A stretch of 64,000 nucleotides of DNA from a virus (IMGVR_UViG_3300025087_000053:11563-75562); one strand, 5' to 3'; positions 5,498-64,000 are shown, counted from the stretch's first letter. Notes: a model not told the origin generated them from the sequence alone. Numbers and translations: made by a program.

Positions 5498-6225
5498 TTC
5501 TTGACGACTTCTGGCATTTCTTTGTTATAGTGGTCGGGGTCGTGTTGGTAAAGAATCTTCACGACCTCAACATGGCCTTTTGCCGAAGCCCATCGGATGG
5601 CATGGTTGTCATCGGCCGTTGGATCAACCCTCTTGTCGGAAAGAAGAATCTTCACGACCTCAACATGGCCTCTTTCCGAAGCCCATAGGATGGCATAGTT
5701 GTTATCGGCCGTTGGATCAACCCTCTTGTCGGAAAGAAGAATCTTCACGACCTCAACATGGCCTTTTGCCGAAGCCCATCGGATGGCATGGTTGTCATCG
5801 GCCGTTGGATCAACCCTCTTGTCGGAAAGAAGAATCTTCACGACCTCAACATGGCCGCAACTCGAAGCATCTTGGATGGCAGCGTTGTCATCGGCCGTTA
5901 GATCAACCCCGCAATCCAAAAGAGTTCTCCACGTCGAAGCTTTCTTCAAAGACATCCGAGGACCAAGAAGAATCTTGTTTGCCTTCCACTTGCTCCCACC
6001 GGGGTCCTTATAAATCTGCAAATCCTCGTCGTTTGGAAACGTCACCTCTCTGATCCACGGGCCGTAATTAAGGAATTCGCAGATATGCTTTTCGTCGGAG
6101 AAATATATTCCTCCGGAAGTACAGGTTCCTTGAGGATTAAAGGGCAAGACATCGACATTAAGCCCCGTCTTGTAATGCATTCTGTTGTGGCGCTCTTTTT
6201 CATTAAGAATCTTGAAGAACGGCAT
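5473..6225 (-). CDS. Ankyrin repeat protein A (4 repeats, conserved N-terminal domain)
   Basis: 31-aa repeats N.AIRWAS..GHVEVVKILL; RBS AAGGA; upstream promoter. Confidence 0.92.
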   Translation of the reverse strand: MPFFKILNEKERHNRMHYKTGLNVDVLPFNPQGTCTSGGIYFSDEKHICEFLNYGPWIREVTFPNDEDLQIYKDPGGSKWKANKILLGPRMSLKKASTWRTLLDCGVDLTADDNAAIQDASSCGHVEVVKILLSDKRVDPTADDNHAIRWASAKGHVEVVKILLSDKRVDPTADNNYAILWASERGHVEVVKILLSDKRVDPTADDNHAIRWASAKGHVEVVKILYQHDPDHYNKEMPEVVKKWNLDKKG

Positions 6226-6254
6226 GGTGATGTCCTTTGTTAGAAGATGGAGCC

Positions 6255-6283
6255 ATCTTATCTTATTTTTGTTGTCTTGTCAA
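6255..6283 (-). promoter_or_regulatory. Sigma70-type promoter of ankyrin gene A
   Basis: TTGACA-17-TAAGAT. Confidence 0.7.
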
Positions 6284-6499
6284 GCCCTCAACATATTTAC
6301 ATCCATCGGAATACCCATCGTCGTATCCATCGTCGTATCCCGCATTCCTCGCTGAAACTTTTGCAGAGTCAATACACATTTTGCAAGGAAGAAGATAATA
6401 GCTACCCGACTCCCCGGATTCTTGGACTTCCAAAACACTAGCACAAACTCTACAATAAAACTTTCTTTCCATCTTCTTCCTCCTCCTCAAACAAAACAA
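6263..6499 (-). CDS. Small hypothetical protein (CxxC pairs, GYDDG repeats)
   Basis: ORF; probable start MERKFYC. Confidence 0.55.
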   Translation of the reverse strand: MFCLRRRKKMERKFYCRVCASVLEVQESGESGSYYLLPCKMCIDSAKVSARNAGYDDGYDDGYSDGCKYVEGLTRQQK

Positions 6500-6836
6500 A
6501 TTTAGAATGAAATATCTTGATAGTTTCTTCTGTAAAAGGAATCTTTAATCCAACCAACTTAGATTCTCCGCTAAGGGGATCTTTCTTAGTTCTTCTAAAA
6601 TAATGAGCCATAACCCTATGTCCGAAAAGATATTCTTTTTTGTCTTTTATCGCAATCCTAGACTTAAACTTGTTGTTAAATTTAGGATAAAGTCTGTAAT
6701 TTGTAAAGTGTCTTTCACCCTCATCTGTTGGTGTCGCCATTCCGATCTCACAATAGCACAAAATATCTCCCAACGAGTTTATTTTATCTTGAAATTCTTC
6801 ATGAAACAACACTCCAAATGGAAAAAAGTAAAACAT
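6450..6836 (-). CDS. Hypothetical protein
   Basis: Tightly packed ORF. Confidence 0.55.
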   Translation of the reverse strand: MFYFFPFGVLFHEEFQDKINSLGDILCYCEIGMATPTDEGERHFTNYRLYPKFNNKFKSRIAIKDKKEYLFGHRVMAHYFRRTKKDPLSGESKLVGLKIPFTEETIKIFHSKFVLFEEEEEDGKKVLL

Positions 6837-7040
6837 TTAAAGCAAATCCCAAAGGTTCTTATAAAGAACATCAGAAATATTCTTTGGTAACTCTTCTTGT
6901 GTTTCAGCCAAGTGCTTTATAAACTTCAAGAACTTTTCGTCTACTTCCTTGGCGATTTGCTCTGCCTGCCTTTTCGCAAGGTGTTTAAGCCGCCTTTCAT
7001 ATTGCTTTTTTGATATACGGAGATTGCGTTTTCTTCTCAT
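6837..7040 (-). CDS. Hypothetical basic protein
   Basis: Tightly packed ORF. Confidence 0.5.
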   Translation of the reverse strand: MRRKRNLRISKKQYERRLKHLAKRQAEQIAKEVDEKFLKFIKHLAETQEELPKNISDVLYKNLWDLL

Positions 7041-7045
7041 AATAT

Positions 7046-7203: not shown

Positions 7204-7495
7204 TCTTTGAGACTTAACCACGACACGAACCCGTTAGTTAACATGGGGTTAAGCCTTCTCCTTCTGTTAAAAAGAACGAATTTACAAAAAAGGAGTAAAT
7301 TCCACTTCGTATGCTCTATTTATAGTATGTCGAAGTTTTATACTACGACGATAAAAAGAACCGCCGCCCTGGCGGGGATAGCCTGCTGTCAAGAAAGCTC
7401 TGGTTCTGGCCTTACGGCCAGAACGAAACTTTTTCATGGGCAGGAATCGAGCAGCCGTATTAACTAAGGAGTTCATGGTTTAAGTCTCGAAGGGG
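7204..7495 (+). mobile_element. Mini TnpB element E2 (left end + promoter + omegaRNA, tnpB deleted), 292 bp
   Basis: Homologous to both ends of E1/E4; internal deletion joins tnpB codon ~10 to AGAACCGCCGCC. Confidence 0.9.
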
Positions 7496-7500
7496 AAAAT

Positions 7501-8643: not shown

Positions 8644-8677
8644 TTTTTTCTCTCTTGTTCGCCCTGTTTTAGGAATT

Positions 8678-8951
8678 CCCCTTCGAGACTTAAACCATGA
8701 ACTCCTTAGTTAACAAGTTAACACGGACGCTCGATTCCTGCCCATGAGAACGTTTCGTGCTGGCCGTAAGACCAGAACCAGAGCTTTCTTGACAGAAGGC
8801 TATCCCCGCCAAGGCGGCGGTTCTTTCATAAGTCGTAGTACAAAACTTCGACACGCTATAATTATAGCACACGAAGTGAAACATGTTGACTTTTTTTGCA
8901 AATTCGTTGTTTTATTCAGCAGTTTATTAACTACAGTTCAAGTCTCAAACG
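8678..8951 (-). mobile_element. Mini TnpB element E3 (274 bp, inverted orientation)
   Basis: Reverse-complement copy with both ends and the same internal deletion as E2. Confidence 0.9.
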
Positions 8952-9002: not shown

Positions 9003-9608
9003 TTAAAACCGGCAACCTGCCTTCTTCAACAGCTTCACGACCTCAACATGGCCGTTTTCCGAAGCCCATAGGATGGCACGGTTGTCACCGGCCGTTGGAT
9101 CAACCCTTTTGTCGGAAAGAAGAATCTTCACGACCTCAACATGGCCGTTTTCCGAAGCCCATAGGATGGCACGGTTGTCACCGGCCGTTGGATCAACCCT
9201 CTTGTCGGAAAGAAGAATCTTCAAGACCTCAACATGGCCTCTTTCCGAAGCCACTCGGATGGCATAGTTGTCATCGGCCGTTGGATCAACTCCGCAATCC
9301 AAAAGAGTTCTCCACGTCGAAGCTTTCTTCAAAGACATCCGAGGACCAAGAAGAATCTTGTTTGCCTTCCACTTGCTCCCACTTGGGTCCTTATAAATCT
9401 GCAAATCCTCGTCGTTTGGAAACGTCACCTCTCTGATCCACGGGCCGTAATTAAGGAATTCGCAGATATGCTTTTCGTCGGAGAAATATATTCCTCCGGA
9501 AGTACAGGTTCCTTGAGGATTAAAGGGCAAGACATCGACATTAAGCCCCGTCTTGTAATGCATTCCATGGTGGCACTCGTCGTCATTAAGAATCTTGAAG
9601 AACGGCAT
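9003..9608 (-). CDS. Ankyrin repeat protein B (3 repeats)
   Basis: N-domain nearly identical to gene A; 93-bp repeats. Confidence 0.92.
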   Translation of the reverse strand: MPFFKILNDDECHHGMHYKTGLNVDVLPFNPQGTCTSGGIYFSDEKHICEFLNYGPWIREVTFPNDEDLQIYKDPSGSKWKANKILLGPRMSLKKASTWRTLLDCGVDPTADDNYAIRVASERGHVEVLKILLSDKRVDPTAGDNRAILWASENGHVEVVKILLSDKRVDPTAGDNRAILWASENGHVEVVKLLKKAGCRF

Positions 9609-9644: not shown

Positions 9645-9673
9645 AGGATATCAAAAACAAAAGAAGATGTCAA
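9645..9673 (-). promoter_or_regulatory. Sigma70-type promoter of ankyrin gene B
   Basis: TTGACA-17-TATCCT; near-identical to 12542-12570. Confidence 0.7.
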
Positions 9674-9939: not shown

Positions 9940-10145
9940 TAGTCACCATCTTTCTTTCCAATAGAAGAAGAATAAAGATCCTTACCCCAACCGCCTCCCT
10001 TTAGAACAAAGGTAGTTTTATAATTTGTTTGCTTCTCTGTTTCTTCAGAAGAACAATCGGGACATTTAATAGACCCTCGCCCTTTCGTCACAATCTCTTC
10101 AAATCTCTTCCCGCATTTCTGACAAACAAACTCGAACAAGGGCAT
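9939..10145 (-). CDS. FmdB-family zinc ribbon protein
   Basis: MPLFEFVCQKCGKRFE...CPDC...FVLKGGGW. Confidence 0.85.
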   Translation of the reverse strand: MPLFEFVCQKCGKRFEEIVTKGRGSIKCPDCSSEETEKQTNYKTTFVLKGGGWGKDLYSSSIGKKDGD

Positions 10146-10180
10146 TGTACATTCTCCTGCGTGTATACGCATATATATAT

Positions 10181-10456
10181 TTATTTAATTATATCTCTCG
10201 CTTTTGGGGTAGAGCACCACATGAGGTCTCCTGGATATGTCGAACTATGGATATAACTTACCATATCTTTTGCCCAAAGCTTCATTAAAGAGTCTATTAC
10301 CATAGCGTTTGAATATCCTGACTCTTCTACAATATATTCCTGAGAAAGATAAGACCTTGCGGCACAGGTTCTTAATATATTTTTGTCTCTCTTGTCTTCT
10401 GCTCTCAACAAGGCTTTTAAAATCTTTTCTTCGTACACTGTTAGTTTGTTTTCCAC
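10181..10456 (-). CDS. Putative winged-helix protein
   Basis: LSQEYIVEESGYSNAMVIDSLMKL HTH-like pattern; GTG start. Confidence 0.45.
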   Translation of the reverse strand: MENKLTVYEEKILKALLRAEDKRDKNILRTCAARSYLSQEYIVEESGYSNAMVIDSLMKLWAKDMVSYIHSSTYPGDLMWCSTPKARDIIK

Positions 10457-10464
10457 TATTTTAA

Positions 10465-11028
10465 TTAGTCTATATAATCTAGTCCTTCACCCCAAAAGTT
10501 CGGATTTTTTCTTTCCCATACAACAAAATAACCCGAAAGAACAGAAATATTATCTCTCTTAAAGACTTTGTATGGATGTCGCGTAGCAGCACTTATAGTT
10601 CCATATTTTGGTCTTGGCTTGGATTTTTGAAACTTCTTTCTCTTAGGAATCTGATTAAGAAAATTCATGCACCCGTCCAAGAACACACTTACGTCATATT
10701 CTGCAAGATATTCTTCAAGCATTTTCTCAAGTGGATACAAATATCCTACAATTGCATACCACTTGTTTCCTCCTTTATCGTTGGAGCGAAAATTATCAAA
10801 GCTCAGCACCGTTGCGCTATATCTTGCTTTCTTCTTTTCTTCTGAACAGCTTAAAGAAAATCCTCTTTCTGGAATCTCCAAGAAGTCGCAAGGAATCAAA
10901 AACTTATTTGTCTCTTCAAAAGAATCCTCTTCTACTTGCTCTTCTTCCGGAAGGCTTATGGAAGATTCTCCAACGCCCAACTTCTCCATCTTCTGTAAGA
11001 TATCAAGTGCCGATGTCTTTTGTGTCAT
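10465..11028 (-). CDS. Hypothetical protein
   Basis: 187-aa ORF. Confidence 0.7.
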   Translation of the reverse strand: MTQKTSALDILQKMEKLGVGESSISLPEEEQVEEDSFEETNKFLIPCDFLEIPERGFSLSCSEEKKKARYSATVLSFDNFRSNDKGGNKWYAIVGYLYPLEKMLEEYLAEYDVSVFLDGCMNFLNQIPKRKKFQKSKPRPKYGTISAATRHPYKVFKRDNISVLSGYFVVWERKNPNFWGEGLDYID

Positions 11029-11824
11029 ATAGATATTTCTCTTTCACAACAAATTGCTTCTTTGTCTTGGGAGAAATCACCAGATAAGGTCGACTTCCCT
11101 TCGACACAGATTGAATTGTTTGATCTTTATTATCCAAAACGATAACATCTTCTGTTGTAATCTTGGTTTTATCCTGCGAAGCGTAATACTTTCTGTTCTT
11201 ATTAAAATTGTTCGGACGATAAACCCTAACTAACTGTCCCTCTTCAAACTTCGGAGGTTCAAGATAAACTCTCCACACTCTATTAGACCACTTGTTATGA
11301 CAAATGTAAAGATAGTCTGAGTAGTTTTGCGGAGGACGAATAAAATATTTATTACTCGACGCATCCCAAAGTTGTGTTTTAGAGAAAATGCTTCTAGCGT
11401 TGGGATATTGAGCGCACAAACTCCAGTTTGCAGACTTGTTGCCAGCACCCAGCGAGAAATTATAATACCCTAAACAAGCTTCCCACCGTTCCTTACATCT
11501 TTCGGTGTTTTCTTCAAACCATTTAGAAAAGCCTTTACCGCCAAAGCAATCATATACCTTTTCTCTTGAGAACAAATCGTTTGCCATTACACTAATAAAC
11601 GAAAGTTGCCCAACGGAAAGAGTTGTGATTCTCGCTTTGCTAAGCAGATCAAGATAATAGCTTTGATATTTATTTTTCCAAATCTCCCAATGAGGAGACT
11701 TGTTTCCTTTTAGGTTTTCATTTAGAGTCTTCAAATACTTAAGGTTTTGTTTTGTTACCTCATCCAAACTAGACGGATATTCCGGCTCAATTGGCATGTT
11801 CTTAAAAAGAATCGGATTAAACAT
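11003..11824 (-). CDS. Hypothetical protein
   Basis: 273-aa ORF overlapping its neighbours. Confidence 0.7.
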   Translation of the reverse strand: MFNPILFKNMPIEPEYPSSLDEVTKQNLKYLKTLNENLKGNKSPHWEIWKNKYQSYYLDLLSKARITTLSVGQLSFISVMANDLFSREKVYDCFGGKGFSKWFEENTERCKERWEACLGYYNFSLGAGNKSANWSLCAQYPNARSIFSKTQLWDASSNKYFIRPPQNYSDYLYICHNKWSNRVWRVYLEPPKFEEGQLVRVYRPNNFNKNRKYYASQDKTKITTEDVIVLDNKDQTIQSVSKGSRPYLVISPKTKKQFVVKEKYLYDTKDIGT

Positions 11825-12506
11825 GGCAACCCGCTTTCGACAACAGCTTCACAACTTCGTAGTGGCCTGCTTGCGAAGCCACTAGGAGGGCATAGTTGTT
11901 GTCGACCGTTGGATCAACCCTCTCGTCGGCAAGAAGAATCCTCACGACCTCTGCATGTCCTTTTAACGAAGCCCATCGGATGGCACAATTGTATGAATCC
12001 GCTGGATCGACTCTCTTATCGGCAAGGAGAGCCTTCACAACTTTACTGTGACCTTGCTTCGAAGCCCATCGGATGGCAGCGTTGCTATCGTCCGCTGGAT
12101 TAGCCCTTTTGTCGGAAAGAAAAAGCTTCACAGCTTCAACATAACCACTATACGAAACCTTTTGGAGTGCGCTGTTCGTTGGAACAACCCCGCAATCCAA
12201 AAGAGTTCTCCACGTCGACGCCTTCTTCAAAGACATCCGAGGACCAAGAAGAATCTTGTTTGCCTTCCACTTGCTCCCACCGGGGTCCTTATAAATCTGC
12301 AAATCCTTGTCGTTTGGGAACGTCACCTCTCGGATCCACGGGCCATATCTAAGGAAATCGCAGATGTGCTTTTCGTCGGAGAAATACAAACCTCCGGGGT
12401 CACAACTTCCGCTAGGATTAAACGGCAAAATGTCGACGTTAAGACCCGTTTTATACTTCATTCCATAGTGGCGCTCGTTGTCGTGAAGAATCTTAAAGAA
12501 CGGCAT
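11817..12506 (-). CDS. Ankyrin repeat protein C (more diverged paralogue)
   Basis: Same N-domain as A and B, 4 repeats. Confidence 0.92.
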   Translation of the reverse strand: MPFFKILHDNERHYGMKYKTGLNVDILPFNPSGSCDPGGLYFSDEKHICDFLRYGPWIREVTFPNDKDLQIYKDPGGSKWKANKILLGPRMSLKKASTWRTLLDCGVVPTNSALQKVSYSGYVEAVKLFLSDKRANPADDSNAAIRWASKQGHSKVVKALLADKRVDPADSYNCAIRWASLKGHAEVVRILLADERVDPTVDNNYALLVASQAGHYEVVKLLSKAGCHV

Positions 12507-12541: not shown

Positions 12542-12570
12542 AGGATAACAAAAACAAAAGAGGATGTCAA
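12542..12570 (-). promoter_or_regulatory. Sigma70-type promoter of ankyrin gene C
   Basis: TTGACA-17-TATCCT. Confidence 0.7.
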
Positions 12571-12573: not shown

Positions 12574-14181
12574 CTATTTTTTAACGAGAACACAACTTAG
12601 CGTAATTAACATGGAGGCGGCGCTAAGAGCGTTGAGAAGCGCAAACACTTCTACTTTCGTAGGATCAAGAATCCCGGCCCCAATCATATCAGGTACAAAA
12701 CCTCTTGTCAAGAAATTATACCCTTTCCATAAACTTTTGTTTTTATTTCTTTTATTTCTCTTTAGCACCTCTGAAGAAAGAGAATCAAAGCTAACGCCAG
12801 AATTGCCACAAAGCTTTCTGAATGGAGAAGATAGGGCATTTTTAATGATTTGAGCACCATGTTTTTGTTCCTCTGTTTTAAAATCGCACATCTTTAAAGA
12901 TTCGGATTGAAGCAGCAAGGGGATGCCTCCACCAGGAAGATACCCATGTTCTAGAGAAGACTTAACCGCCTCTAAAGAGTCCTGAACTCTGTGCGTTTTT
13001 TCTATTGCTTCTGCTTCTGTATACCCTCCAACACGTATAACCGCAGCTCCAGAAGAAAGTCTAGAAATTCTTCCTTCAAGAATCTTTTGTTTTATTTCGC
13101 TCTCTTCTCGGCGAAGCTCTTCTTTTAATTCTTCTGTCTTGGCAAGTATCTTTGCTTGCTCTCCTCCTCCACCAACGAAAGTAGAAACATTTTTATAAAT
13201 CTCTACTGATTTGACTCGACCAAGATGTACCATTCTGGTTTTTTCTAAAGTCAGCATCGCACTATCATAAGGAGAAATAAACTCTGCTCCAGTGACAAGA
13301 GCCAAATCTTTAAGTATCTCTTTTCTTTCTTCACCAAAAGCGGGAGGACTTACCACCGCAATTTTCATTGTGTTGTTGATTGCGTTTAATATAACAGCCG
13401 ATAAAGCCTGACCCTCCACCTCTTCCGCGATAATTACCAAAGGCTTTCCTTCTTTTGCTGCCATGGTCAGAATACCCATTATTTGCTCAACAAAAGAAAC
13501 TCTCTGATCTGTTACCAACACCAATGCGTCGTTATATCTTACGGAATTTGTTCTATGGTCGTTTACAAGCGCCGAAGAAACATAGCCTGAGTTAAATCGA
13601 AATCCGTCGATATATTCAACAACGGTATCAAAAGACTTCGACATTTCAACCACAATTGAGCCATCTTTCCCTATGTTTGAAACAACATCCTCTATTAGAT
13701 TCCCAATAACTTCGTCGCCATTTGCAGAAATTGTCGCAATACTTTTAATTTGTTCTGTTGAGTCAACCTTGAGAGAACTCTTTTTCAATTCTTCTACAAC
13801 TTTTTCTACAGCTTTTTCCATTCCCACTTTAAGTTCGTTGGGATTGTCGCCAAGATCAAGATATTTCAAAGAAGAGAAAAAGATATTCGCGGCCAACACA
13901 ATACTTGTCGTAGTTCCATCACCTGCGTTGATGTTTGTGGAAATTGCAGCTTGCTTTAATATTTGTACTATGGCATTTATAATCGGGTCATCTGATTCAA
14001 CAAACTTCGCAACAGTTACACCGTCTTTCGTTTGGACGGGCGAACCATCTCCGCTCTTTAAAAGAACCGTTTTACCAGCAGGACCCATTGTTGACGATAC
14101 AGGAAAATAAATAAGTTCTATCGCCTTTAGAACTTTTTCTCTAAGCTCACGAGAATCCATTTCATGAAAATTCATTCTCAA
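12574..14181 (-). CDS. groEL: Chaperonin GroEL (phage-encoded)
   Basis: TMGPAG, TKDGVTVAK, AGDGTTT, ATISANGD, GILDPTKV. Confidence 0.97.
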   Translation of the reverse strand: MRMNFHEMDSRELREKVLKAIELIYFPVSSTMGPAGKTVLLKSGDGSPVQTKDGVTVAKFVESDDPIINAIVQILKQAAISTNINAGDGTTTSIVLAANIFFSSLKYLDLGDNPNELKVGMEKAVEKVVEELKKSSLKVDSTEQIKSIATISANGDEVIGNLIEDVVSNIGKDGSIVVEMSKSFDTVVEYIDGFRFNSGYVSSALVNDHRTNSVRYNDALVLVTDQRVSFVEQIMGILTMAAKEGKPLVIIAEEVEGQALSAVILNAINNTMKIAVVSPPAFGEERKEILKDLALVTGAEFISPYDSAMLTLEKTRMVHLGRVKSVEIYKNVSTFVGGGGEQAKILAKTEELKEELRREESEIKQKILEGRISRLSSGAAVIRVGGYTEAEAIEKTHRVQDSLEAVKSSLEHGYLPGGGIPLLLQSESLKMCDFKTEEQKHGAQIIKNALSSPFRKLCGNSGVSFDSLSSEVLKRNKRNKNKSLWKGYNFLTRGFVPDMIGAGILDPTKVEVFALLNALSAASMLITLSCVLVKK

Positions 14182-14918
14182 ACCTCTTTCAACAGTTGTT
14201 CAATATCTAAAGCTCCATAACAATCCTGTTTTTCTCTATTGATATGATAATGATGAATAAACCCCTTACAAGAGTTATGGATAAATGTTGCTTTATTCCC
14301 ATTCAAAGTCTGCAAAGGAAGATGAAAGAAAAGATGAAAAGCCTTCCAAAGCTCTTTTAAAGCCTCTAGTTGTATTGGATAAAATCCTAATATCTTCCCA
14401 AGTTTAACACCATTCACTCTATCCTGGGTTTCTATAATCGGTCGTGCTCCAAATCCATTCTTCTCATACCAATCTTGGTATTTTAGTTCTACAGCGTTTG
14501 TTATTTCAACTCCAACGCTTTTTGCATTATAGGGCTTTGCGTGCTGAGCAATGTCCGCAATGTCACACATTTGATATATCGTTCCATCGTTGTCAATAGA
14601 AAAATGAACACTCAATCCTCTATGTTCCAATACAGAATAGCAATCTCGCGAGGACAAACAAGCATCCCAATGGTTAACAAATAAATTAATCTCTCTGGTC
14701 CCCTTAACACTTACTACATTCTTATTCCTCATTCCTCCTGGCTCTGTGAAGTCGACAACAGGCCAGGCAATGGGGACTGAAGCTGTTCTCCGATAGATAA
14801 GAAAATTTTCCTCTTTTAAACTAGGCTTCTGGGGCACATAGGTTATGCCTTTCTCCAGATTATAGTTGGAAATATTCTCTCTCGCGAGAGCTGAGAGGTC
14901 TTCTTTGGTTTTTGTCAT
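14178..14918 (-). CDS. N-acetylmuramoyl-L-alanine amidase (Amidase_2), putative endolysin
   Basis: FVNHWD, SVHFSIDNDGTIYQ, AQHA..YN..SVGVEI, HYHI; native start MTKTK; alternative start 14939 inside E4. Confidence 0.85.
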   Translation of the reverse strand: MTKTKEDLSALARENISNYNLEKGITYVPQKPSLKEENFLIYRRTASVPIAWPVVDFTEPGGMRNKNVVSVKGTREINLFVNHWDACLSSRDCYSVLEHRGLSVHFSIDNDGTIYQMCDIADIAQHAKPYNAKSVGVEITNAVELKYQDWYEKNGFGARPIIETQDRVNGVKLGKILGFYPIQLEALKELWKAFHLFFHLPLQTLNGNKATFIHNSCKGFIHHYHINREKQDCYGALDIEQLLKEV

Positions 14919-14920
14919 CG

Positions 14921-16307: not shown

Positions 16308-16319
16308 ATGTCTAGCCCC

Positions 16320-34405: not shown

Positions 34406-35620
34406 CTATTCTTCGTCCTTCTCTCCAAACGACACTACAGAAGAGCCCTTCTTTTCATTGAGTTTTTCCGTTGGTTGGTCGGGAAAGTTAGGAATTTCTT
34501 TGTGTCCCTCGTCTGTTTCTTTATCGAAATAGAAATCCGCTGCATTCTTTTTTTCGTTAAAGTTCACAACCATCTCTTCTTCAACAACCTTCATCACAAG
34601 AGCAAAAAAGTTTGCATCGTTCTTGAGAAGATCGCTCCAATCTTTCTCTTGGAACTTTACTTCTTGCTTGTCATCTCCCATAAGAAACTTCCAAGGTCCG
34701 CCTGTACGATATCTAGGAGAGATTTTAACTACCTCAAACAAACTTTCATCATCACAAACTCCGACTCTGTTGGGGTCTCCCCACAAAATCTTAAACTCAC
34801 ACTTTCTTTTCTCGGTCCCATATCGTGATTTAATAAGCTTCGCTTTTACTGTTGAGCCAATAATAAACCCCTTCTCGTCCTCAACGAAAGAGGCTTTTGC
34901 ATGAGGCTTAACAAGCCAAATACGAAGATGGCAAGCATAAGCAACAGAAAGCCCACCAGGAGTAAAATACTTAACTTCATCTGTTGCGTATTTGCTAGAA
35001 GCCTCTGGAGAAATGTTTGTCTTAAGATGATTTAAGATTACCCAAGTGGCCCCAGCCCTGTTAAGAGGTCCAAGCAGCTTCGAAATACCCTTTGAAATAG
35101 TTCTTGCCTTAACAGAAACCGAAGAACTTGGATTAAAATCTCCTTCAACATCAGTTAAGTCGGGGAGCATGGCAAGGCTGTCGAGAATAAAGACAACTCT
35201 ACCCATCTCTTCTTCTGAAAGAACAGCTTCCATGATTTCAAACATTTGTCGTATATCGTCTGGAAGAATATAGGTAAGATGATCTAAGTCGCATCCGGCG
35301 TTGATAAGAAACTCTGAGTCTATTGCTCTCTCGCTATCAAAATATACAACGTGATAGCCCTTCTTTTGGGCATTTACCGCAATTTGCGCTGCCAAATAAC
35401 TTTTCCCAACTCCAGACAAAGAGGCTATTTCTGTAATTCTTCCTACGGGAATTCCCGCTTTAATTCCCCTTGCGATTGTACAATCCAGAAGAAAAGAACC
35501 TGTAGAAATCCAGTCTTTAACTGTTGCAGGAGACTCATCTTTTGTAAGATTGTAAGCAACGTCATGTCCGACTTTTTTGTTTATGATAGATTTAATTTTT
35601 TCTAAGCTTGTCTTTGTCAT
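34406..35620 (-). CDS. recA: RecA/UvsX recombinase
   Basis: ISTGS..LD, GIPVGRITEI, GVGKS, FDSE, LDSLA, TPGG. Confidence 0.93.
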   Translation of the reverse strand: MTKTSLEKIKSIINKKVGHDVAYNLTKDESPATVKDWISTGSFLLDCTIARGIKAGIPVGRITEIASLSGVGKSYLAAQIAVNAQKKGYHVVYFDSERAIDSEFLINAGCDLDHLTYILPDDIRQMFEIMEAVLSEEEMGRVVFILDSLAMLPDLTDVEGDFNPSSSVSVKARTISKGISKLLGPLNRAGATWVILNHLKTNISPEASSKYATDEVKYFTPGGLSVAYACHLRIWLVKPHAKASFVEDEKGFIIGSTVKAKLIKSRYGTEKRKCEFKILWGDPNRVGVCDDESLFEVVKISPRYRTGGPWKFLMGDDKQEVKFQEKDWSDLLKNDANFFALVMKVVEEEMVVNFNEKKNAADFYFDKETDEGHKEIPNFPDQPTEKLNEKKGSSVVSFGEKDEE

Positions 35621-42082: not shown

Positions 42083-42424
42083 TTATCCCTCAAACATCAT
42101 CATAACTTTTTCCAACGGCAAAGGAATATAAACTATTTGTCCAATTGTTAATTGGCAGTCTACTGGAACTTGGTTAAACCAAGCAATCAACCACCATAAA
42201 GTAACATCTCCATAGTGTTTATATGCAAGTTTATAATACTTGTCCCCGGCTCTCCATGTATGATTAACAACATCAAGTTCTTTTATTTGTTCTTTTGTCG
42301 GATATTTCAGTTGAAGAGTTTTGTATTGTAAAATATGCTTAAGCCCCTTTTTCTTAAGCTCCGAAGCATACATTTCATTTTTGTTGATAACAGGATTTAA
42401 CCTGCGATAACGAGAGATGGGCAT
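42083..42424 (-). CDS. LysM-like baseplate wedge protein (gp53/tail X-like)
   Basis: HTWRAGDKYYKLAYKHYGDVTLWWLIAWFN...GQIVYIP. Confidence 0.8.
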   Translation of the reverse strand: MPISRYRRLNPVINKNEMYASELKKKGLKHILQYKTLQLKYPTKEQIKELDVVNHTWRAGDKYYKLAYKHYGDVTLWWLIAWFNQVPVDCQLTIGQIVYIPLPLEKVMMMFEG

Positions 42425-43992
42425 TATTTAACAACCTCTTTATACGATTCTTTGATTAATCTTCTTAGAAAGGATTCTTTTATTTCTTCTTTCTTGTCCA
42501 AATCCCATTTCCTGACGATTCCTGGTGTTTCTTTATTATAGTGGTCGGGGTTATGTTGATAAAGAATCTTCACGACCTCAACATGGCCGTTTGCCGAAGC
42601 CCATCGGATGGCAGCGTTGTCATCGGCCGAGGGAACAACCCTCTTGTCGGAAAGAAGAATCTTCACGACCTCAACATGGCCGTTTGCCGAAGCCACTCGG
42701 ATGGCAAGGTTGTTACCGGCCGTTGGATCAACCCTCTTGTCGGAAAGAAGAATCTTCACGACCTCAACCTGGCCGTATTCCGAAGCCCATTGGAAGGCAT
42801 AGTTGTCATCGGCCGTTGGATCAACCCTTTTGTCGGAAAGAAGAATCTTCACGACCTCAACATGGCCTTTTGCCGAAGCCCATCGGATGGCAAGGTTGTT
42901 ACTTGTTCTTACGTTCGCACCCTTCCGAATTAAATCTTTTACATATTCGAGGTTGGGAGTTTCTTCTTGTTTTACCGCATCTTTTAGCTTGTTGTTTAGC
43001 AAACCTTGCCGTTGAATCTGTTTTTCATATTTTAAAAACTCTTCGGGGATACCACCCTCCGACATCTCCGCCATCATTTCGATGGAAGGATTATACCCGG
43101 CTCGAACAATCTTCATTAGCTTTCGGAGTTCGTCGACATTATACGCTTCCGCTTCATCTCTATTGAAAGCCGCAGCAACAAACTTTAGCCAATCGTCATA
43201 TGTTACTTCCTTCATGTTCTTCTGCATCAAGGAAACATATTTGTTAAATCGGTCTTGACCTCCGATCTCTTCTATTACTTCTCTCGGGGTTTGAAGAAGA
43301 TTTCCCGTAAATATGCCGCCAGGATATTCGTTCTCTACTGTCGTTACGGTTGTTTCGATACCGTCCCCTTGGTCGACAACAGCAAAGTTAATTCTTGAAA
43401 ACCTGTTACTTATGACGTCTTCCAAAGGAACTGTCTTGTTTATGACGTTAAAAAAGACGACCCCATCGTTAATCGTATATTGATAGAAATAGTTCTGTCC
43501 TTGGGCTGCAATACACCATGGGGTTCCTCGACCCCAATAACAAGAGCCCTCCCTCGACAGCAGACGAATCATGATGTATTCATCGTCCTCATAAAGAGTT
43601 TGGAAATGTTCCCCTTCGCCACTTTCGGCTGCTTTATAGGCGGTTTTCTTCTTCTCTTTCCCCTTCGATCTCTCGCTCCGTTGCACGGTTTCGTAATAGT
43701 TGATTGCGTCGAAGACTCTTTCAGCCGTTTCGTATTGATTAATGTCTTTCTTTTCCAGCCGAGGACCAATCTGATCGAACTTAAGAAATGCGTCCGCAAC
43801 AAGCTCTTTGCTCTCGTTGCCTTGAAGAGTTCTTTTTAAAGCCCATTCCAAATACTTCTGTTTGCCCGTCGGATCTTTCGAGGCAAAGAAGTCGATTAGC
43901 TCTGTTTGCTCGGGAAGCTTTTCTTTCAGAGAGGAAATTTTATCTTCAAGCAAAAGAACATCTTTAACTTCTTCCAAAATTACATATCTCAT
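42424..43992 (-). CDS. Multidomain protein with C-terminal ankyrin cassette (ankyrin locus D), within the tail module
   Basis: N-terminal DPTGKQKYLEW / SCYWGRGTPWC domain; four 93-bp repeats at ~42561-42905. Confidence 0.85.
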   Translation of the reverse strand: MRYVILEEVKDVLLLEDKISSLKEKLPEQTELIDFFASKDPTGKQKYLEWALKRTLQGNESKELVADAFLKFDQIGPRLEKKDINQYETAERVFDAINYYETVQRSERSKGKEKKKTAYKAAESGEGEHFQTLYEDDEYIMIRLLSREGSCYWGRGTPWCIAAQGQNYFYQYTINDGVVFFNVINKTVPLEDVISNRFSRINFAVVDQGDGIETTVTTVENEYPGGIFTGNLLQTPREVIEEIGGQDRFNKYVSLMQKNMKEVTYDDWLKFVAAAFNRDEAEAYNVDELRKLMKIVRAGYNPSIEMMAEMSEGGIPEEFLKYEKQIQRQGLLNNKLKDAVKQEETPNLEYVKDLIRKGANVRTSNNLAIRWASAKGHVEVVKILLSDKRVDPTADDNYAFQWASEYGQVEVVKILLSDKRVDPTAGNNLAIRVASANGHVEVVKILLSDKRVVPSADDNAAIRWASANGHVEVVKILYQHNPDHYNKETPGIVRKWDLDKKEEIKESFLRRLIKESYKEVVK

Positions 43993-48611: not shown

Positions 48612-48801
48612 TTCGTGTGCTATATTTACAATGTGTCGAAGATTTATACTACGACTTATGAAAGAACCGCCGCCTTGGCGGGGATAGCCTGCTGTCAAGA
48701 AAGCTCTGGTTCTGGCCTTACGGCCAGAATGAAACTCTCTCATGGGCAGGAATTGAGTAGCCGTGTTAGCTAAGGAGTTCATGGTTTAAGTCTCAAAGGG
48801 G
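48612..48801 (+). mobile_element. Mini TnpB element E5 (promoter + omegaRNA + right end; left end not recognisable)
   Basis: Homology to E2/E3 from TTCGTGTGCTATATT to GTCTCAAAGGGG. Confidence 0.88.
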
Positions 48802-48864
48802 ACCTAGATTAGCACATTAAATAGGCTAATGTGAGGATTTTAGCAAGAAGAGAAGAAATAAACA

Positions 48865-58257: not shown

Positions 58258-58671
58258 CTAACTAGAGAGCACCTTCAGTTTTTTCGTCTTTTTTGCCTCA
58301 TTCTTCGGGATAACCAGCTTTAAAATGCCATAATTATATGAAATTTCTGCCTTTTCTAAATCATAAATATTTTCTGTGTCGTAGTAAGATGTTTCCAACT
58401 TTGTGGAAAGATTAGAAATCGGTTTTTCTCCAGGATCTGCCTTAATTATCATCTGGTTCCCTCGAACCTCCACGGAAATATCCTCTTCCCGAAGGCCGGG
58501 AACAGCATATTCAAGAATTTTCTTGTCCGCTTCTTCTTTTGTGAAATAATCTTTGTACTCTTGGACCTTTTGAAAGGACCACTGTACTGGAGCGTCAAAT
58601 AGTTCATCTTTAAACACAGGCCAAAAGTAATTCATAGGATCCATTAGTTTCATTAGTGAGTTGTTTTTCAT
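58258..58671 (-). CDS. Small heat shock protein (Hsp20)
   Basis: VPGLREEDISVEV...YNYGILKLVIPK; GGAGG RBS before MKNNS. Confidence 0.9.
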   Translation of the reverse strand: MKNNSLMKLMDPMNYFWPVFKDELFDAPVQWSFQKVQEYKDYFTKEEADKKILEYAVPGLREEDISVEVRGNQMIIKADPGEKPISNLSTKLETSYYDTENIYDLEKAEISYNYGILKLVIPKNEAKKTKKLKVLSS

Positions 58672-58748
58672 AGTTTTATCCTCCGTAGGTTTAGCCTTTT
58701 CAAGGCAACGGAAAGATAAACATAAAATTTTGATTGTCAAGCAAGAAA

Positions 58749-59273
58749 TTAACGAACAAACCCAAATCTCTTTAAAAATTCTCTTTCTTTCTGCAATTCC
58801 TCTTCTGCTAACTGAGAAAAAGACACCAAGCAAGAGGGGAACGGAGCCCCCGTCTTCATCTGAACCCCATCCACAACAAACTTAATCCTTCCTGAAATAA
58901 AACAAATGTGCTTTGCGTGCTCAAACACCTTCTTAAAAGCTTTTGTGTCTGTTCTTGCTGGAGTAAGCATTAGAACTCGATAACATCTTTTATTTACGAC
59001 TTCATCAATTGATTTTTCTACCCACTTCTTTAATTGGCTATAAGGAGGATTTACGAAAACCTCATGCCCTTCCCAAGGAAATTCTAGTCCATTTGTTCCG
59101 TTTTTTGTACAATACAAAGAACATTTTGCATTTTCTGATGTTGCACAAGGATCAAGAGAAAATCCATAAAACTCATCCAAATTGGCAAACATCTCATCAG
59201 GAGTTCCATATTCGTCGTTTTTATGCGAATGAACTAGTTTTTTTGTTCTCTTGTCCATTTTATACCTCTTCAA
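58749..59273 (-). CDS. Phage DNA N6-adenine methyltransferase (Dam-like)
   Basis: YGTP, FSLDPCA, FVNPPYS, PARTDT, GRIKF, APFPS. Confidence 0.92.
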   Translation of the reverse strand: MKRYKMDKRTKKLVHSHKNDEYGTPDEMFANLDEFYGFSLDPCATSENAKCSLYCTKNGTNGLEFPWEGHEVFVNPPYSQLKKWVEKSIDEVVNKRCYRVLMLTPARTDTKAFKKVFEHAKHICFISGRIKFVVDGVQMKTGAPFPSCLVSFSQLAEEELQKEREFLKRFGFVR

Positions 59274-60161: not shown

Positions 60162-60623
60162 CTACTTATTGTGGATTGGGAACCTCTGGAAATAAGAGGC
60201 CCAAATCTCCCTCGCACAATTCACGCGCCCGGTTCTCTCGGGAAGAGCCTTCTGGAGGGCTCGACGAAGGGAATACTTTCGACCCTTGTTCTTGTCGAAG
60301 TTGTCCCAAGCCACGCACATCGCCTTCCCCTCGCCAAAGGGAGTCTCAGTGTTGTCCGAGCCCACAAGAAACACCTGGCACTCCGTAGAACCGCCATGAT
60401 TTCGAGTCTTCTCCACCACCTGCCCCGTCTTGGGGTCTGGCGACTCATACTTCTCGAACACCCGATTGTGCTTCCACAGAATACGAATCTTCTCACCAGT
60501 GCTCAGCATCACATCCAGCATCTTCCTTCTCCTTGTTTCCGCAACTGTTTGTTTTTCGTAACCAACTACAGAAAGGTTAACAAACTTAAGGGATTTTGTC
60601 AAGCTCAATCTTACATCCAACAT
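60162..60623 (-). CDS. Hypothetical protein
   Basis: A.C..WDNFDKNKGRK.SL.RAL motif; probable start MLDVM after promoter. Confidence 0.65.
   Translation of the reverse strand: MLDVRLSLTKSLKFVNLSVVGYEKQTVAETRRRKMLDVMLSTGEKIRILWKHNRVFEKYESPDPKTGQVVEKTRNHGGSTECQVFLVGSDNTETPFGEGKAMCVAWDNFDKNKGRKYSLRRALQKALPERTGRVNCAREIWASYFQRFPIHNK
60574..60602 (-). promoter_or_regulatory. Sigma70-type promoter
   Basis: TTGACA-17-(TGt)TAACCT. Confidence 0.65.
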
Positions 60624-60987
60624 CTCTTAAAAGCCTCACGACCTCAACATGGCCGTTTTTCGAAGCCAATTGGATAGCCTGATTCTCATAGGCCGTTGGG
60701 TCGACCCTCTTGTCGGAAAGAAGAATCTTCACGACATCAACATGGCCGTTTTCCGAAGCCCATCGGATGGCATAATTATCAAAAACCACCGGATTAACCC
60801 TCTTGTCGGAAAGAAGAAATTTCACGACCTCGACAAGACCTTTTCCCGAAGCATATCGGATGGCATAGTTGTTATCGGCCCTTGGATCGAACACCTCCAT
60901 CGACAGAATTAAAGCCGCTTCCTTGTCTTTGCCTTTTTTGCAAAGCTCCCAAAAAAGCCGCTCTCCTCTGTTTTGTTCTCTTCTCAT
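60586..60987 (-). CDS. Ankyrin repeat protein E (3 repeats, unrelated N-terminus)
   Basis: Same 93-bp repeat family. Confidence 0.88.
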   Translation of the reverse strand: MRREQNRGERLFWELCKKGKDKEAALILSMEVFDPRADNNYAIRYASGKGLVEVVKFLLSDKRVNPVVFDNYAIRWASENGHVDVVKILLSDKRVDPTAYENQAIQLASKNGHVEVVRLLRDVGCKIELDKIP

Positions 60988-61188: not shown

Positions 61189-62444
61189 TGATTTTTCCCC
61201 AGGTTGTTTTCAACAATAATAATCGGCTCTCCCGCAGGAGGACCATAAGACTTGGAATTATTCCAATGATCGTAATTAGCTCTATCCACAACCCAAATCC
61301 TCTTAATGCGAATTGAGTCGGGAACGGGAGCCCCTGTATCCGTCAAAATAAAACAAGCATCATATCCCGATTCAACTGCCCACTTTGAGCAGTTATTAAA
61401 ATCGGTTCCGCCTGCCAAGGCCCGGAACGGCTTAACCTTCTTATTCTTTTCCCATCTAAACAAACTCTTTGTCTCAACCTCAACGTCAAAAGGAACCACA
61501 TCAAACTCCACAAACTTCGCAAGACTATCCAACTCACCAAAGAACATAGAAAGAAGTTCGTCTCCCATCGAACCAGATTGGTCCATCAACACCGCGATTC
61601 TTGCCGTATGTGTAAACTTCTTCCCTGGAAACATATACGGCATTCTCTTATTAATCTTTCTGATAGTCGACTTCTTCTTTGCTCTAACCGCTCCCATAAC
61701 AAGCATTCTCACAACATCTTGCCATCTTACCGAAGAATCAAGGTAATCGTTGATTTCTTTTTGAATTTGCGCCGGGATGGAGCCCCACGAATGGTTAATT
61801 GCGTTCCGCTTTCCCTCTCGCATTGCCTTTTTAATTTCTTGCTCTGCGGCAGAAAGAAGGTCGGGCGGGAAGCCGTCTGGAAACTCTGTGATGTTTCCGT
61901 TCTCGTCAACTCCAAAACAAATATGTGAAATACCCTTGAACTTCTCTAGAATACTTTCCTTATTGGGATCTCTTTGCAGCATTGCATAATATTGCTCTGC
62001 TGTAAGACCAGACGGATAATTTAAGAAGTCCCTCTTTCCTGGGATAACCCAATCGTCCCTCATTTCATCCGCTTGAAGAAAAGAATTCACAGCCAAGTCC
62101 AAGCAAATGTTCCAAATCCTTGGTTCAATCTTCTTTTTTTCTGCGCTTCTGCGCGTAATATGCCCAAGAAGAATATGATAAAATTCATGCTTAAAGACAC
62201 CGATCCTTTGCTTGATTGTAAGCTCATTCATGTAAACATTATTAATCACAAGCGAAGGGCGGCCCGTCTTTTTGTTTAGAGAAACACCAGCCGTTGGAAC
62301 TTCGGCCCAATTGCCTACATATTTATCCACCCCCAAACTAAACCCAGCAAGAAAAGGTTCAGCTTGATAATAATGCCCAAGATCAGTCTTGAGGTTAAAA
62401 AGAGGAACCGGCTTATCTTCGGGAGAATACATTTTAATTCTCAC
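61185..62444 (-). CDS. Metallopeptidase-like (HExxH) + vWA domain protein (DUF2201-type)
   Basis: PTAGV, HEFYHILLGH, WNI..DLAVN, DQSGSM, GGTDF, ILTD. Confidence 0.88.
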   Translation of the reverse strand: MRIKMYSPEDKPVPLFNLKTDLGHYYQAEPFLAGFSLGVDKYVGNWAEVPTAGVSLNKKTGRPSLVINNVYMNELTIKQRIGVFKHEFYHILLGHITRRSAEKKKIEPRIWNICLDLAVNSFLQADEMRDDWVIPGKRDFLNYPSGLTAEQYYAMLQRDPNKESILEKFKGISHICFGVDENGNITEFPDGFPPDLLSAAEQEIKKAMREGKRNAINHSWGSIPAQIQKEINDYLDSSVRWQDVVRMLVMGAVRAKKKSTIRKINKRMPYMFPGKKFTHTARIAVLMDQSGSMGDELLSMFFGELDSLAKFVEFDVVPFDVEVETKSLFRWEKNKKVKPFRALAGGTDFNNCSKWAVESGYDACFILTDTGAPVPDSIRIKRIWVVDRANYDHWNNSKSYGPPAGEPIIIVENNLGKNQ

Positions 62445-63619
62445 TTGATAGCAGAAAGCTCACGACCAAGGACGTACTTCTGATAAATCCTTTGCATCTT
62501 CAACTTTTGACCCTCAATGGTCGCCTCATTGTTCGAAATAGCCTTCGTCAGGTCAAAATTCCACTCGCCTCCAAAAACAACCTCATCCCAGAACTTAAGG
62601 AAGATTTCCGAAGGCATTTCTAGAAGAAGATTGGAAACATTTTCCGCTGTCTTCTGCTTGTTGTTCGCAAACTTCTTGTGCAAAAGCTCTTTGGTAGCTG
62701 GATCCTTCCAACGATCAATATGATTGTTCCACTCGCTAACATTGAACCTTTGAACCTTGCCAAAAGCAACCTTATCACCATTCAGAATATCTTCCGGCTT
62801 AATCACCTTGTTCTTAGCGTCTGCCACCCAATTCTTGAAAGAATTTGCAGCCTCTTCTCCAACGAAACCATTCGAAATAAGAAAAATCTTTGTCAAGTCT
62901 TCTGAATTGTTTTGTAGAGCACTTTCGAGAATCTTGGAGTTCTTAGCAACAACCGTATTCAGACGATCCCACGACCGACGAGAAGGGTAAACCTTCCCCG
63001 GCTTCATGTTCTTGGTAACTTCAAGACACTCGGGGAAATTCTGCACGAATGCAAGGATTTCTGGATGAATCCCACCTCGCTCGCGGCCCCACTCAACCCA
63101 ATCCTCAATGGTCGGATTAAGATCAAACGTCACCCAACGGTCCAAGAAAGCAGGGTCCATGGAGTTAACATTATAATTATTTTCGTTCTCTCCGCCATTA
63201 ACACAAGAAATAAGCACCGTCCTCGGATGAAGAGTATATCCCGCAAGAGTGCGAGAATCACCAAGCTCAAAGTAGCCCTGAGACACCTCAAGTGTCGCAC
63301 GATCAATTTCGTCGATCAACAGAACCGTTGGCTTTGTGCAAGCCTCCATAAACCAATCTGGCGGATAATATTTTGTGGTGTTGTTTGTGCGATCCCTAAA
63401 GGGAAGTCCTAGCTGATCCCCCTCTGTTTGCTGTGAAGCTCGCCGTGTAACAAATCCATATTCCATTTCATTAATGGCATAAAGAAAATTCACAAGTTCC
63501 TTGGCCCACGAACTCTTTCCAACTCCATGCTTTGCACGAAGAAGAATGGGAGGAGGATTATCACAATTGATAATCGGAAGAATGATATTCAGCAGCATCT
63601 TGAAAGAATACTCAATCAT
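62441..63619 (-). CDS. MoxR-like AAA+ ATPase
   Basis: HGVGKS, LLIDEIDRA, MDPAFLDRW, PSRRSW. Confidence 0.9.
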   Translation of the reverse strand: MIEYSFKMLLNIILPIINCDNPPPILLRAKHGVGKSSWAKELVNFLYAINEMEYGFVTRRASQQTEGDQLGLPFRDRTNNTTKYYPPDWFMEACTKPTVLLIDEIDRATLEVSQGYFELGDSRTLAGYTLHPRTVLISCVNGGENENNYNVNSMDPAFLDRWVTFDLNPTIEDWVEWGRERGGIHPEILAFVQNFPECLEVTKNMKPGKVYPSRRSWDRLNTVVAKNSKILESALQNNSEDLTKIFLISNGFVGEEAANSFKNWVADAKNKVIKPEDILNGDKVAFGKVQRFNVSEWNNHIDRWKDPATKELLHKKFANNKQKTAENVSNLLLEMPSEIFLKFWDEVVFGGEWNFDLTKAISNNEATIEGQKLKMQRIYQKYVLGRELSAIK

Positions 63620-63655
63620 TTTATTTTCCTCTTCTTAGAACGCTAAAGTTGAGCA

Positions 63656-63684
63656 ATAGTAACAGATTTTATTCTTTAAGTCAA
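63656..63684 (-). promoter_or_regulatory. Sigma70-type promoter
   Basis: TTGACT-17-(TGt)TACTAT. Confidence 0.7.
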
Positions 63685-64000
63685 GCGGGAAATTTACATC
63701 CGGCATCTTTTAAAAGCTTCACGACCTCAACATGGCCTTTTGCCGAAGCCCATTGGATGGCATAGTTGTTACCGGCCGTTGGATCAACCCTCTTGTCGGA
63801 AAGAAGAATCTTCACGACCTCAACATGGCCTCTTTCCGAAGCCCCTCGGATGGCAAGGTTGTTATAGGCCGTTGGATCAACCCTCTTGTCGGAAAGAAGA
63901 ATCTTCACGACCTCAACATGGCCGTTTCCCGAAGCCCATTGGATGGCACGGTTGTCACCGGCCGTTGGATCAACCCTCTTGTCGGAAAGAAGAATCTTCA
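63681..64000 (-). CDS. Ankyrin repeat protein F (3' part; starts beyond the window)
   Basis: At least three 93-bp repeats, C-terminus KLLKDAGCKFPA. Confidence 0.88.
   Translation of the reverse strand, partial: KILLSDKRVDPTAGDNRAIQWASGNGHVEVVKILLSDKRVDPTAYNNLAIRGASERGHVEVVKILLSDKRVDPTAGNNYAIQWASAKGHVEVVKLLKDAGCKFPA

Follow-up and report, generated by a model that had tools for sequence, protein, structure and literature searches.

The six ankyrin-repeat genes of the window

This analysis concerns a 64,000-nucleotide stretch of viral DNA, hereafter the window, and the six ankyrin-repeat genes (A to F) that lie in it. The window comprises bases 11563-75562 of a linear 75.5-kb IMG/VR record (IMGVR_UViG_3300025087_000053; CheckV completeness 38%), its end being the end of the contig, and all of its long open reading frames (ORFs) are on the minus strand. 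Because it encodes a tail sheath, a split bacterial-type DnaE, a ribonucleotide reductase, GroEL, DnaB, a UvsX-like recombinase and genes for the tail tube, baseplate hub and baseplate wedge, along with an HNH endonuclease and a head-tail adaptor, we take the source to be an uncultured groundwater tailed phage of the myovirus type, with a genome of roughly 200 kb, of which the window is a part.

Six minus-strand ORFs hold 21 full ankyrin units of 93 bp in register, plus one that is cut by the contig end. Tandem Repeats Finder delimited 93-bp arrays at 5551-5909, 9033-9290, 11967-12136, 42562-42899, 60636-60867 and 63717-64000, in agreement with the six loci that had been located in an earlier examination of the DNA alone (the sequence-only reading). 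Each unit consists of a 57-nt scaffold and a 36-nt variable block, and the scaffold has 11 matches at ≤3 mismatches, five of them exact, compared with none in 100 shuffles. All six ORFs matched Pfam ankyrin models (E 1e-15 to 1e-22) and belong to PF00023/PF12796, scoring 56-80 bits to Ank_2 against a cut-off of 27.3.

Gene A (250 aa; 5473..6225, minus strand; Pfam ankyrin E 3e-22) comprises a head domain (5902-6225), four ankyrin units (5521-5892) and a type-1 tail (YQHDPDHYNK...). Gene B (201 aa; 9003..9608, minus strand) has a head 94% identical to that of A, three units (to 9275) that are recognized by Pfam and a type-2 tail (LLKKAGCRF). The same head domain is found in gene C (229 aa; 11817..12506, minus strand), followed by four diverged units and a type-2 tail, and C is an older paralogue of A and B. 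Gene D (522 aa; 42424..43992, minus strand) lies amid baseplate and tail genes and carries a 360-aa N-terminal region, unrelated to the heads of A, B and C, in front of four core-type units (42532-42903) and a type-1 tail. Gene E (133 aa; 60586..60987, minus strand) is an ankyrin-only gene by Pfam, with units E1-E3 at 60598-60876, of which E2 is near the core type. Gene F (63681..64000, minus strand), whose 5′ end is cut by the contig end, retains three units, part of a fourth and a type-2 tail. The second tail type is thus common to B, C, E and F, and the first is found in A and D. The translations of the ankyrin proteins contain no signal peptide or recognizable secretion signal, none of A to F has a Pfam match to NACHT or NB-ARC, and PHROG and Pfam assigned no function to the N-terminal region of D or to the small neighbours of A-C.

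Amino-acid change is concentrated in seven codons

The sequence-only reading had proposed that the scaffold is almost invariant, synonymous sites included, and that the remaining 12 codons vary mainly at six positions. All of the codon alleles and 12-residue cassettes that it listed are present in the window, and the concentration of change is evident; however, the variable codons number seven, at unit positions 1, 2, 4, 7, 8, 11 and 12. Across the 10 full units that A, B, D and F contain together, the scaffold is 97.6% identical and the 36-nt variable block 79.2% identical, giving a mean unit identity of 81% at the amino-acid level (65-94%) and 90.5% at the nucleotide level. The units of C and E are more diverged, as had been claimed.

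We compared the proportions of non-synonymous (pN) and synonymous (pS) differences, using count-based tests rather than a codon model. When E2 is taken together with the units of A, B, D and F, pN is 0.41 and pS 0.08 at the seven variable codons, compared with a pN of 0.02 and a pS of 0.06 at the 19 scaffold codons. By gene pair within this lineage, the non-variable codons have a pS of 0-0.07, and pN at the variable codons is 0.36-0.55 even where scaffold pS is 0 (A-A and F-F pairs). A minimal-step count at the seven codons gave 23 non-synonymous steps over 17.0 sites and three synonymous steps over 22.4 sites, a ratio of ~10 (p=2e-6); over codons 1-12, the helix-1 segment defined a priori, the ratio is 6.4 (p=2.3e-4). 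The near-invariance of the scaffold is therefore borne out, changes in the few variable codons nearly all alter the amino acid, and synonymous divergence is nowhere near comparable to non-synonymous divergence at these codons. Since pN is far above pS, relaxed constraint alone is ruled out, and the pattern calls for either positive selection or a targeted mutator.

The third codon positions at the variable codons are largely kept, as xxT at positions 1 and 4, xAC at position 2, CxA at position 7 and mostly xxA at position 11, and pS at these codons is 0-0.13 by gene pair. Because the third positions are conserved, the variable alleles are as young as the scaffold, and are better explained as products of point mutation than as reshuffled old alleles. 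In a four-gamete-type test on the 36-nt block, 45 of the 55 informative site pairs were incompatible with any tree; shuffled columns gave 44.9 +/- 2.5 such pairs, and there was no clear dependence on distance. This absence of linkage is better explained by saturation through recurrent selected mutation, plus the exchange of whole units, than by homologous recombination at a scale of <10 nt, which accounts for it poorly. It is nevertheless our least comfortable observation, and leaves small room for an unfamiliar mechanism.

The variable residues lie on one face of the first helix

The AlphaFold2 model of the protein encoded by gene A has a predicted local distance difference test score (pLDDT) of 93. 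In comparisons made with VIA-align, it matched designed ankyrin repeat proteins (DARPins) and natural ankyrin structures at Z ~17, including AKR2A at Z 17.2 with a root-mean-square deviation (rmsd) of 1.5 Å over 114 residues, and it has the stacked helix-turn-helix fold of ankyrin repeats. The variable segment of unit 1 is entirely helical (DSSP, residues 111-123 of the model) and is followed by helix 2 (126-134). An ideal-helix calculation placed positions 1, 4, 7, 8, 11 and 12 within a 140-degree arc, with the invariant N3, A5, I6, A9 and S10 on the opposite side and position 2 (D or N) at the N-cap. The model and the calculation agree with the suggestion, made from the sequence, that the variable residues share one face, and they place this predicted face on the solvent side of helix 1.

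The further suggestion that this is the face randomized in DARPins holds in part. The same face of helix 1 is involved; however, only three of the seven variable positions coincide with randomized positions, and the tip of the beta-turn is deleted. A HMMER alignment to the DARPin 6mol showed that the phage unit is without the three residues of the beta-turn tip, and aligned positions 4, 7 and 8 with T6, H9 and L10, which we take to be framework positions in DARPins. Unit positions 1, 11 and 12 align with the randomized DARPin positions 33, 13 and 14, and the invariant N3 of the unit aligns with position 5, which we also take to be randomized. This list of randomized positions reportedly goes back to work by Binz et al. 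from 2003.

Turnover of the arrays and mosaic genes

The sequence-only reading had attributed the uniformity of the scaffold to gene conversion or recombination that also reshuffles the binding residues. We compared the repeats with the unique sequence that flanks them. For the head domain, pS is 0.046 between A and B and 0.30-0.32 between A or B and C; for the unit scaffold, the corresponding values are 0.027 and 0.31-0.32. As the two sets of values are similar, the scaffold is no more homogenized than the flanking unique sequence, and recent amplification would be enough to explain its uniformity, with no requirement for continuing gene conversion. Since the pS among units within an array is 0.48 in C and 0.00 in A, the array of the A/B/D/F lineage must, to judge from these divergences, have been built anew from a single unit once that lineage had separated from C.

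Genes A and B are alike over 603 nt (94%), from the ribosome-binding site onward, and the last unit and tail of A match D over 422 nt (88.6%). The head of A is thus like that of B and its tail like that of D, which indicates exchange through the arrays. The part of the earlier proposal that stands is therefore the rebuilding of arrays and their exchange between loci, as seen from the pS values and the mosaic genes. What is not supported is the need for ongoing conversion of the scaffold, given its pS of 0.027 versus 0.046 for the A and B heads, and the reshuffling of binding residues, given the low pS of the variable codons and the nil linkage within 36 nt. We also considered gene E as a conversion mosaic, in which E2 differs from the core at four of 72 non-variable nucleotides and E1 at 11 of 72, and these are too few sites to make such a claim.

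An ortholog of gene D in a related phage, on contig L001, is 85% identical over residues 1-132 and has no ankyrin repeats, and the N-terminal module of D thus appears to have been combined with different partners. On L001 the gene spans 10001-11335, and the 132 residues that are kept are followed by an entirely different C-terminal part of 310 aa.

Variants in public assemblies and the soundness of the loci

Population variants were sought as proteins at ≥90% identity in public short-read metagenome assemblies. In these 90%-identity clusters, variants of A have four or six units, those of B two or three, and those of D one, three or four, the one-unit variant of D carrying a third variant of the tail. 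There are also chimeras. One is a B-headed protein of five units, one of which is identical to F1, with an A-type tail; others join the first two cassettes of A to a cassette and tail that are found on the metagenome contig L059. Nineteen distinct cassettes are now known, of which that of F1 recurs in the variant P0127, and DNNLAIRRASEK in L059, P0121 and P0122.

A 26-mer of the scaffold had no IMG/VR match outside the record itself, and among metagenome contigs it was found on one, L059 (Ga0208957_1001687). The core-type ankyrin gene on this contig (10424-10780) has three cassettes that are absent from the window and an A-type tail; its neighbours differ, and the contig ends within it. The gene could represent a seventh locus of this phage, or else come from a close relative.

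The sequence-only reading had allowed that the loci might be assembly collapses. The six loci themselves are sound. The longest exact runs are 72 nt between loci, 120 nt within A and 75 nt within B; only the unit counts of these two genes are therefore open to collapse or expansion. In Logan contigs from four groundwater or soil runs, the junctions of the genes with their flanks are reproduced and three of the four units of the C array are spanned, with 0-2 differences; one 2.7-kb contig (9536-12307) includes most of gene C. The exact C and D proteins are present on 12 and eight contigs, respectively, including one of 119.9 kb. The Logan contigs, which are built from k=31 unitigs, break at A and B and are uninformative on unit number or on variation within the population. 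Alternative letters at 5789/5790, 9163, 9172 and 9174 fall within variable codons and match cassettes elsewhere (for example L059.1 and F1); we rejected them as alleles and read them instead as cross-mapped unitigs. The peaks of depth over the arrays are likewise sums of cross-mapped unitigs, from which no copy number can be derived.

A head domain shared with giant viruses

The first 108 residues of A, B and C are without a counterpart in Pfam or PHROG. A profile of this head domain found 3526 cluster representatives at E ≤1e-3, in which it is nearly always N-terminal; in a sample of 100 representatives, 65 had ankyrin repeats and six had DUF4116 repeats. The head-domain model (pLDDT 96) superimposes on the heads of Mimiviridae ankyrin proteins in BFVD with a query-normalized template-modelling score (TMq) of 0.93-0.94 and an rmsd of 1.1-1.3 Å, at 40-46% identity over 108-110 columns (E 1e-12), and the best 50 BFVD rows are all from giant viruses. 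The whole protein, comprising head and array, matches a giant-virus protein with a TMq of 0.86 over 235 columns. On the strength of these models, the architecture of a 108-aa head followed by ankyrin repeats belongs to a Mimiviridae-like giant-virus gene family, a kinship that is new in this analysis.

As to what the head might do, the PDB gave no Foldseek match at E ≤1e-3, and the hidden Markov model profile found only a chance-level match among PDB sequences. The best VIA-align score against the PDB, Z 5.4 (Arr and Tpt1/KptA), does not reach the noise level of 7-8 that applies to this tool; about 45 of the best 50 rows, also sub-noise, are of the ADP-ribosyltransferase fold (Arr, Tpt1/KptA, diphtheria-type toxins, PARPs and DarT). 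Conserved residues of the head include H13, Y41 (within GGIYF) and E60 (within WIREV). A head resembling ADP-ribosyltransferases is a lead only. DUF7666 (PF24703) has no match to the heads of A, B and C at E ≤10 and none in the genome; one of the 100 sampled family representatives reached a sub-threshold 25 bits (cut-off 27) in its head domain. The Atlas similarity to DUF7666 is 0.77.

In five other records with the head domain, neither an NCLDV capsid nor the sheath of this phage gave a match, and as the controls were equally silent this negative carries no information. The same head is also present on a further viral contig, L065 (IMGVR_UViG_3300009296_000166; GC 0.64), at 1603-2262, where it is followed by four ankyrin-like repeats of 27 aa. 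The DNA of these repeats is identical except at three codons that differ non-synonymously (TAC/GAA, AGG/TGG and TTG/TGG), in four different combinations.

Comparison with known systems

The closest analogue is found in the NOD-like receptors (NLRs) of Podospora and other fungi, whose highly similar ANK, TPR and WD repeats evolve in concert, are polymorphic in number and are under positive selection at their concave face (Dyrka et al., 2014; PMC4986451). In both systems the repeat DNA is near-identical, diversifying selection acts on a few positions of the concave or helix face, and the array is fused to varied domains. The variants in unit number and the chimeras seen in the clusters of short-read assemblies may correspond to the fungal polymorphism in repeat number and to exchange of repeats within and between paralogous loci. 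In contrast to the fungal genes, the phage units are not joined to NACHT or NB-ARC, reside in a phage genome and form short arrays of three to four units, with a mean amino-acid identity of 81% that lies below the cut-off of 85% over ≥100 aa (PMC4986451).

In giant viruses, the ankyrin "genomic accordion" of Bodo saltans virus is a multi-copy family that has been read as the signature of an arms race (PMC5871332). The two-part architecture of the phage proteins is that of Mimiviridae proteins with a head and ankyrin (or DUF4116) repeats, such as Borely moumouvirus A0A6G6ADU4 and mimivirus R267 (Q5UPU4). However, the phage copies are dispersed rather than arranged in terminal tandem blocks, the genome that hosts them is that of a tailed prokaryotic virus, and their units are of 31 aa with near-identical DNA. 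DARPins similarly share a fixed framework with variable surface residues and a close structural match (Z ~17, rmsd 1.5-2.7 Å), but differ in the beta-turn tip, which the phage unit does not have, and in four of the seven variable positions.

Ankyrin-repeat proteins are also carried by the "Ankyphages" of sponge symbionts (ANKp; bioRxiv 10.1101/608950) and by Wolbachia phage WO (PMC3173496), where, as these sources are summarized, they are thought to act in conflicts between organisms; the same summaries do not report near-identical repeat DNA with hypervariable codons, or the giant-virus head. A literature search for phage ankyrin anti-defence proteins returned nothing relevant. Diversity-generating retroelements (DGRs) likewise produce hypervariation in the first and second positions of a few codons of a binding surface. 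Unlike in DGRs, however, the changes here are not adenine-specific, the targets are many, and neither a template repeat nor a reverse transcriptase was found in the fragment.

Origin of the variation and alternative explanations

The explanation that we favour, with moderate confidence, is that A to F are a multigene family of intracellular ankyrin-repeat binder proteins that arose by recent amplification and exchange, followed by point mutations at the seven codons that strong diversifying selection fixed. A single 31-residue unit would have been amplified recently in one lineage of the family, and recombination via the identical 57-nt scaffolds would have distributed it to no fewer than four genes, namely A, B, D and F; this would have included its fusion to an unrelated tail-module gene (D) and the swapping of two kinds of C-terminal tail. 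After amplification, the seven codons of each unit would have been replaced almost to saturation by ordinary selected point mutations, with the other 24 codons barely changing, even synonymously. The resulting paralogous binders would share one scaffold and present many distinct surfaces for binding. The variable face would bind protein targets, and the selective pressure would come from conflict between host and virus or between viruses. The UvsX-like recombinase of the window (34406..35620, minus strand; phrog_97, E 3e-47) is a candidate enzyme for the exchange between identical scaffolds.

Several points weigh against this explanation. The seven-codon set was picked after seeing the data, and the test on the a priori segment is weaker, though still significant; the evidence for selection is count-based throughout, being neither codon-model nor recombination-aware. 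The variants in copy number and the chimeras may in part be assembly artefacts, especially those of A, with its exact internal repeat of 120 nt. A complete lack of linkage among the variable sites is unusual for simple mutation and selection and, with no background mutation beside it, leaves room for a targeted diversification process other than a DGR. Finally, a diversifying enzyme could be encoded in the remaining 62% of the genome.

An alternative that we consider unlikely is that ongoing gene conversion keeps the scaffold uniform while shuffling a standing pool of old alleles among the cassettes. It would account for the mosaic genes, for the sharing of cassettes with P0127, L059, P0121 and P0122, and for a number of incompatible pairs (45/55) equal to that of full shuffling, and the phage does encode a UvsX-like recombinase. 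Old alleles, however, would be expected to have gathered synonymous differences, as the units of C have (0.48), and the pS of the variable codons is only 0-0.13; the scaffold pS is not below that of the non-repeat heads of A and B, and the exchange tracts would have to be shorter than ~10 nt. Much less probable is a targeted hypermutation system, DGR-like or unfamiliar, that writes the variable codons. Such a system would produce what is seen, namely changes limited to codon positions 1 and 2 in a handful of codons, a background that is virtually unchanged and nil linkage among sites, and 62% of the genome is missing. A DGR is nevertheless not supported, and is rejected on the mutation spectrum, in which variant states occur at G (10), A (9), C (5) and T (3). 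In addition, none of the units would do as a template whose differences from the rest are confined to its adenines, the contig contains no extra non-coding copy of the unit, and 21 targets in six genes are not the layout of a DGR. The lack of an RVT_1 match applies to the 75.5-kb contig, a fragment from a record that is 38% complete. We give the least credence of all to a collapsed or chimeric repeat assembly. The contig does end inside F and L059 inside its array, the Logan contigs break at A and B, and unit numbers differ between assemblies; against this, the limited runs shared between loci, the junctions reproduced in four runs and the exact C and D proteins on 12 and eight contigs argue that the genes are real, and the variable codons are read directly, independently of the path of the assembly.

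Other alternatives concern what the proteins are aimed at. It is improbable, though conceivable, that the binders target a eukaryote, with the host of the phage living in or with protists and the proteins behaving as the ankyrin effectors of symbiont phages do. Outside this phage, the family that combines the head with ankyrin repeats occurs in giant viruses whose hosts are amoebae and other protists; the best sequence matches of the ankyrin repeats include chytrids and Rozella, and the ANKp proteins of sponge symbionts and the Wolbachia phage ankyrins, as summarized in the sources cited above, offer precedents. The proteins, however, carry no signal peptide or recognizable secretion signal, the source samples are groundwater and soil metagenomes, and matches to sigma-70-like promoters (see below) suggest action inside the infected bacterium. 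Somewhat more doubtful is the notion that gene D, at least, encodes a baseplate or fibre component of the virion, with the ankyrin array as a receptor-binding module that tracks variation of the host surface. Gene D does lie between a baseplate-wedge-like gene (42083-42424) and the genes for the baseplate hub, tube and sheath; many large phages share its first 200 aa in conserved form, and its C-terminal part is swapped in the relative on L001. It has, though, no match to a structural-protein family, and A, B and C are stand-alone genes in an accessory region with their own predicted promoters. We also know of no ankyrin receptor-binding proteins in phages.

There is, lastly, a slight chance that the phage and the giant viruses share a set of retargetable effectors, in which the head is a minimal enzyme, possibly ADP-ribosyltransferase-like (H13, Y41 and E60), whose substrate is re-specified, in very little evolutionary time, by cassette turnover and by hypermutation-like replacement of the seven helix-1 residues of each unit. 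If so, these effectors would be a viral counterpart of the repeat-recognition repertoires of fungal NLRs or of lamprey variable lymphocyte receptors.

On the favoured explanation of recent amplification and selected point mutation, a bacterial virus would possess a small set of binders built on one scaffold, with surfaces that change at about ten times the rate of silent sites, a regime that is documented for fungal immune receptors and suspected for the ankyrin expansions of giant viruses. The head links a tailed phage to a Mimiviridae-like gene family, and raises the questions of where such viruses meet and what the head does. The arrays could also be regarded as natural, pre-selected ankyrin scaffolds of a compact 31 residues without the beta-turn, and the short genes, with predicted promoters of their own, would be a tractable system for finding the partners of phage ankyrin proteins.

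Promoters, neighbouring genes and the source genome

Upstream of A, B and C alike, 30-37 nt before the start codon, lies a perfect TTGACA followed by a 17-nt spacer and TAxxxT. The sigma-70-like match upstream of A (TTGACA-17-TAAGAT; 6255..6283, minus strand) is ~30 nt from the start codon; those upstream of B (9645..9673, minus strand) and C (12542..12570, minus strand) are both TTGACA-17-TATCCT with TG, and the promoter-like sequences of these two genes are conserved with each other. If these predicted promoters, all of them matches to the consensus only, are real, A, B and C would be early genes that are read by the host polymerase. A tandem repeat with a 12-nt unit (x2.2) occupies 6315-6340, just upstream of the promoter region of A.

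The phage stands well apart from cultured phages: the closest match to the tail sheath is that of Microcystis phage Mel-JY01 (28.6%), and 22 kb of the window had no megablast match to cultured phages. Public runs that contain 86-89% of the words of the phage are groundwater and soil metagenomes from six studies. The bacterial-type DNA polymerase III alpha (18757-22705, minus strand) is split into two overlapping ORFs, one with PHP and the first half of the polymerase, and the other with the second half, the finger and the helix-hairpin-helix. Also encoded, both on the minus strand, are a chaperonin of the GroEL type (12574-14181) and a small heat-shock protein resembling Hsp20 (58258-58833).

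Two neighbouring genes beside the tail sheath (553 aa and 278 aa) are 76% identical over 806 nt (52367-53170 versus 54460-55263); they are without a family match and look like a duplicated structural-module gene. Another pair of paralogous genes, at 3662-5054 and 14916-16308 (499 and 445 aa), is 88.6% identical and has no Pfam or PHROG match. The 5′ ends of this second pair are overlapped by an element of 140-230 bp that is present in five dispersed copies (4915-5055, 7270-7497, 8676-8913 in inverted orientation, 16169-16308 and 48612-48805) and also occurs on L059 (5357-5594 and 8058-8291); the ankyrin genes A and B adjoin these dispersed elements. A further tandem repeat, with a 33-nt unit (x2.2), lies at 17299-17366 within the ORF at 17045-17743.

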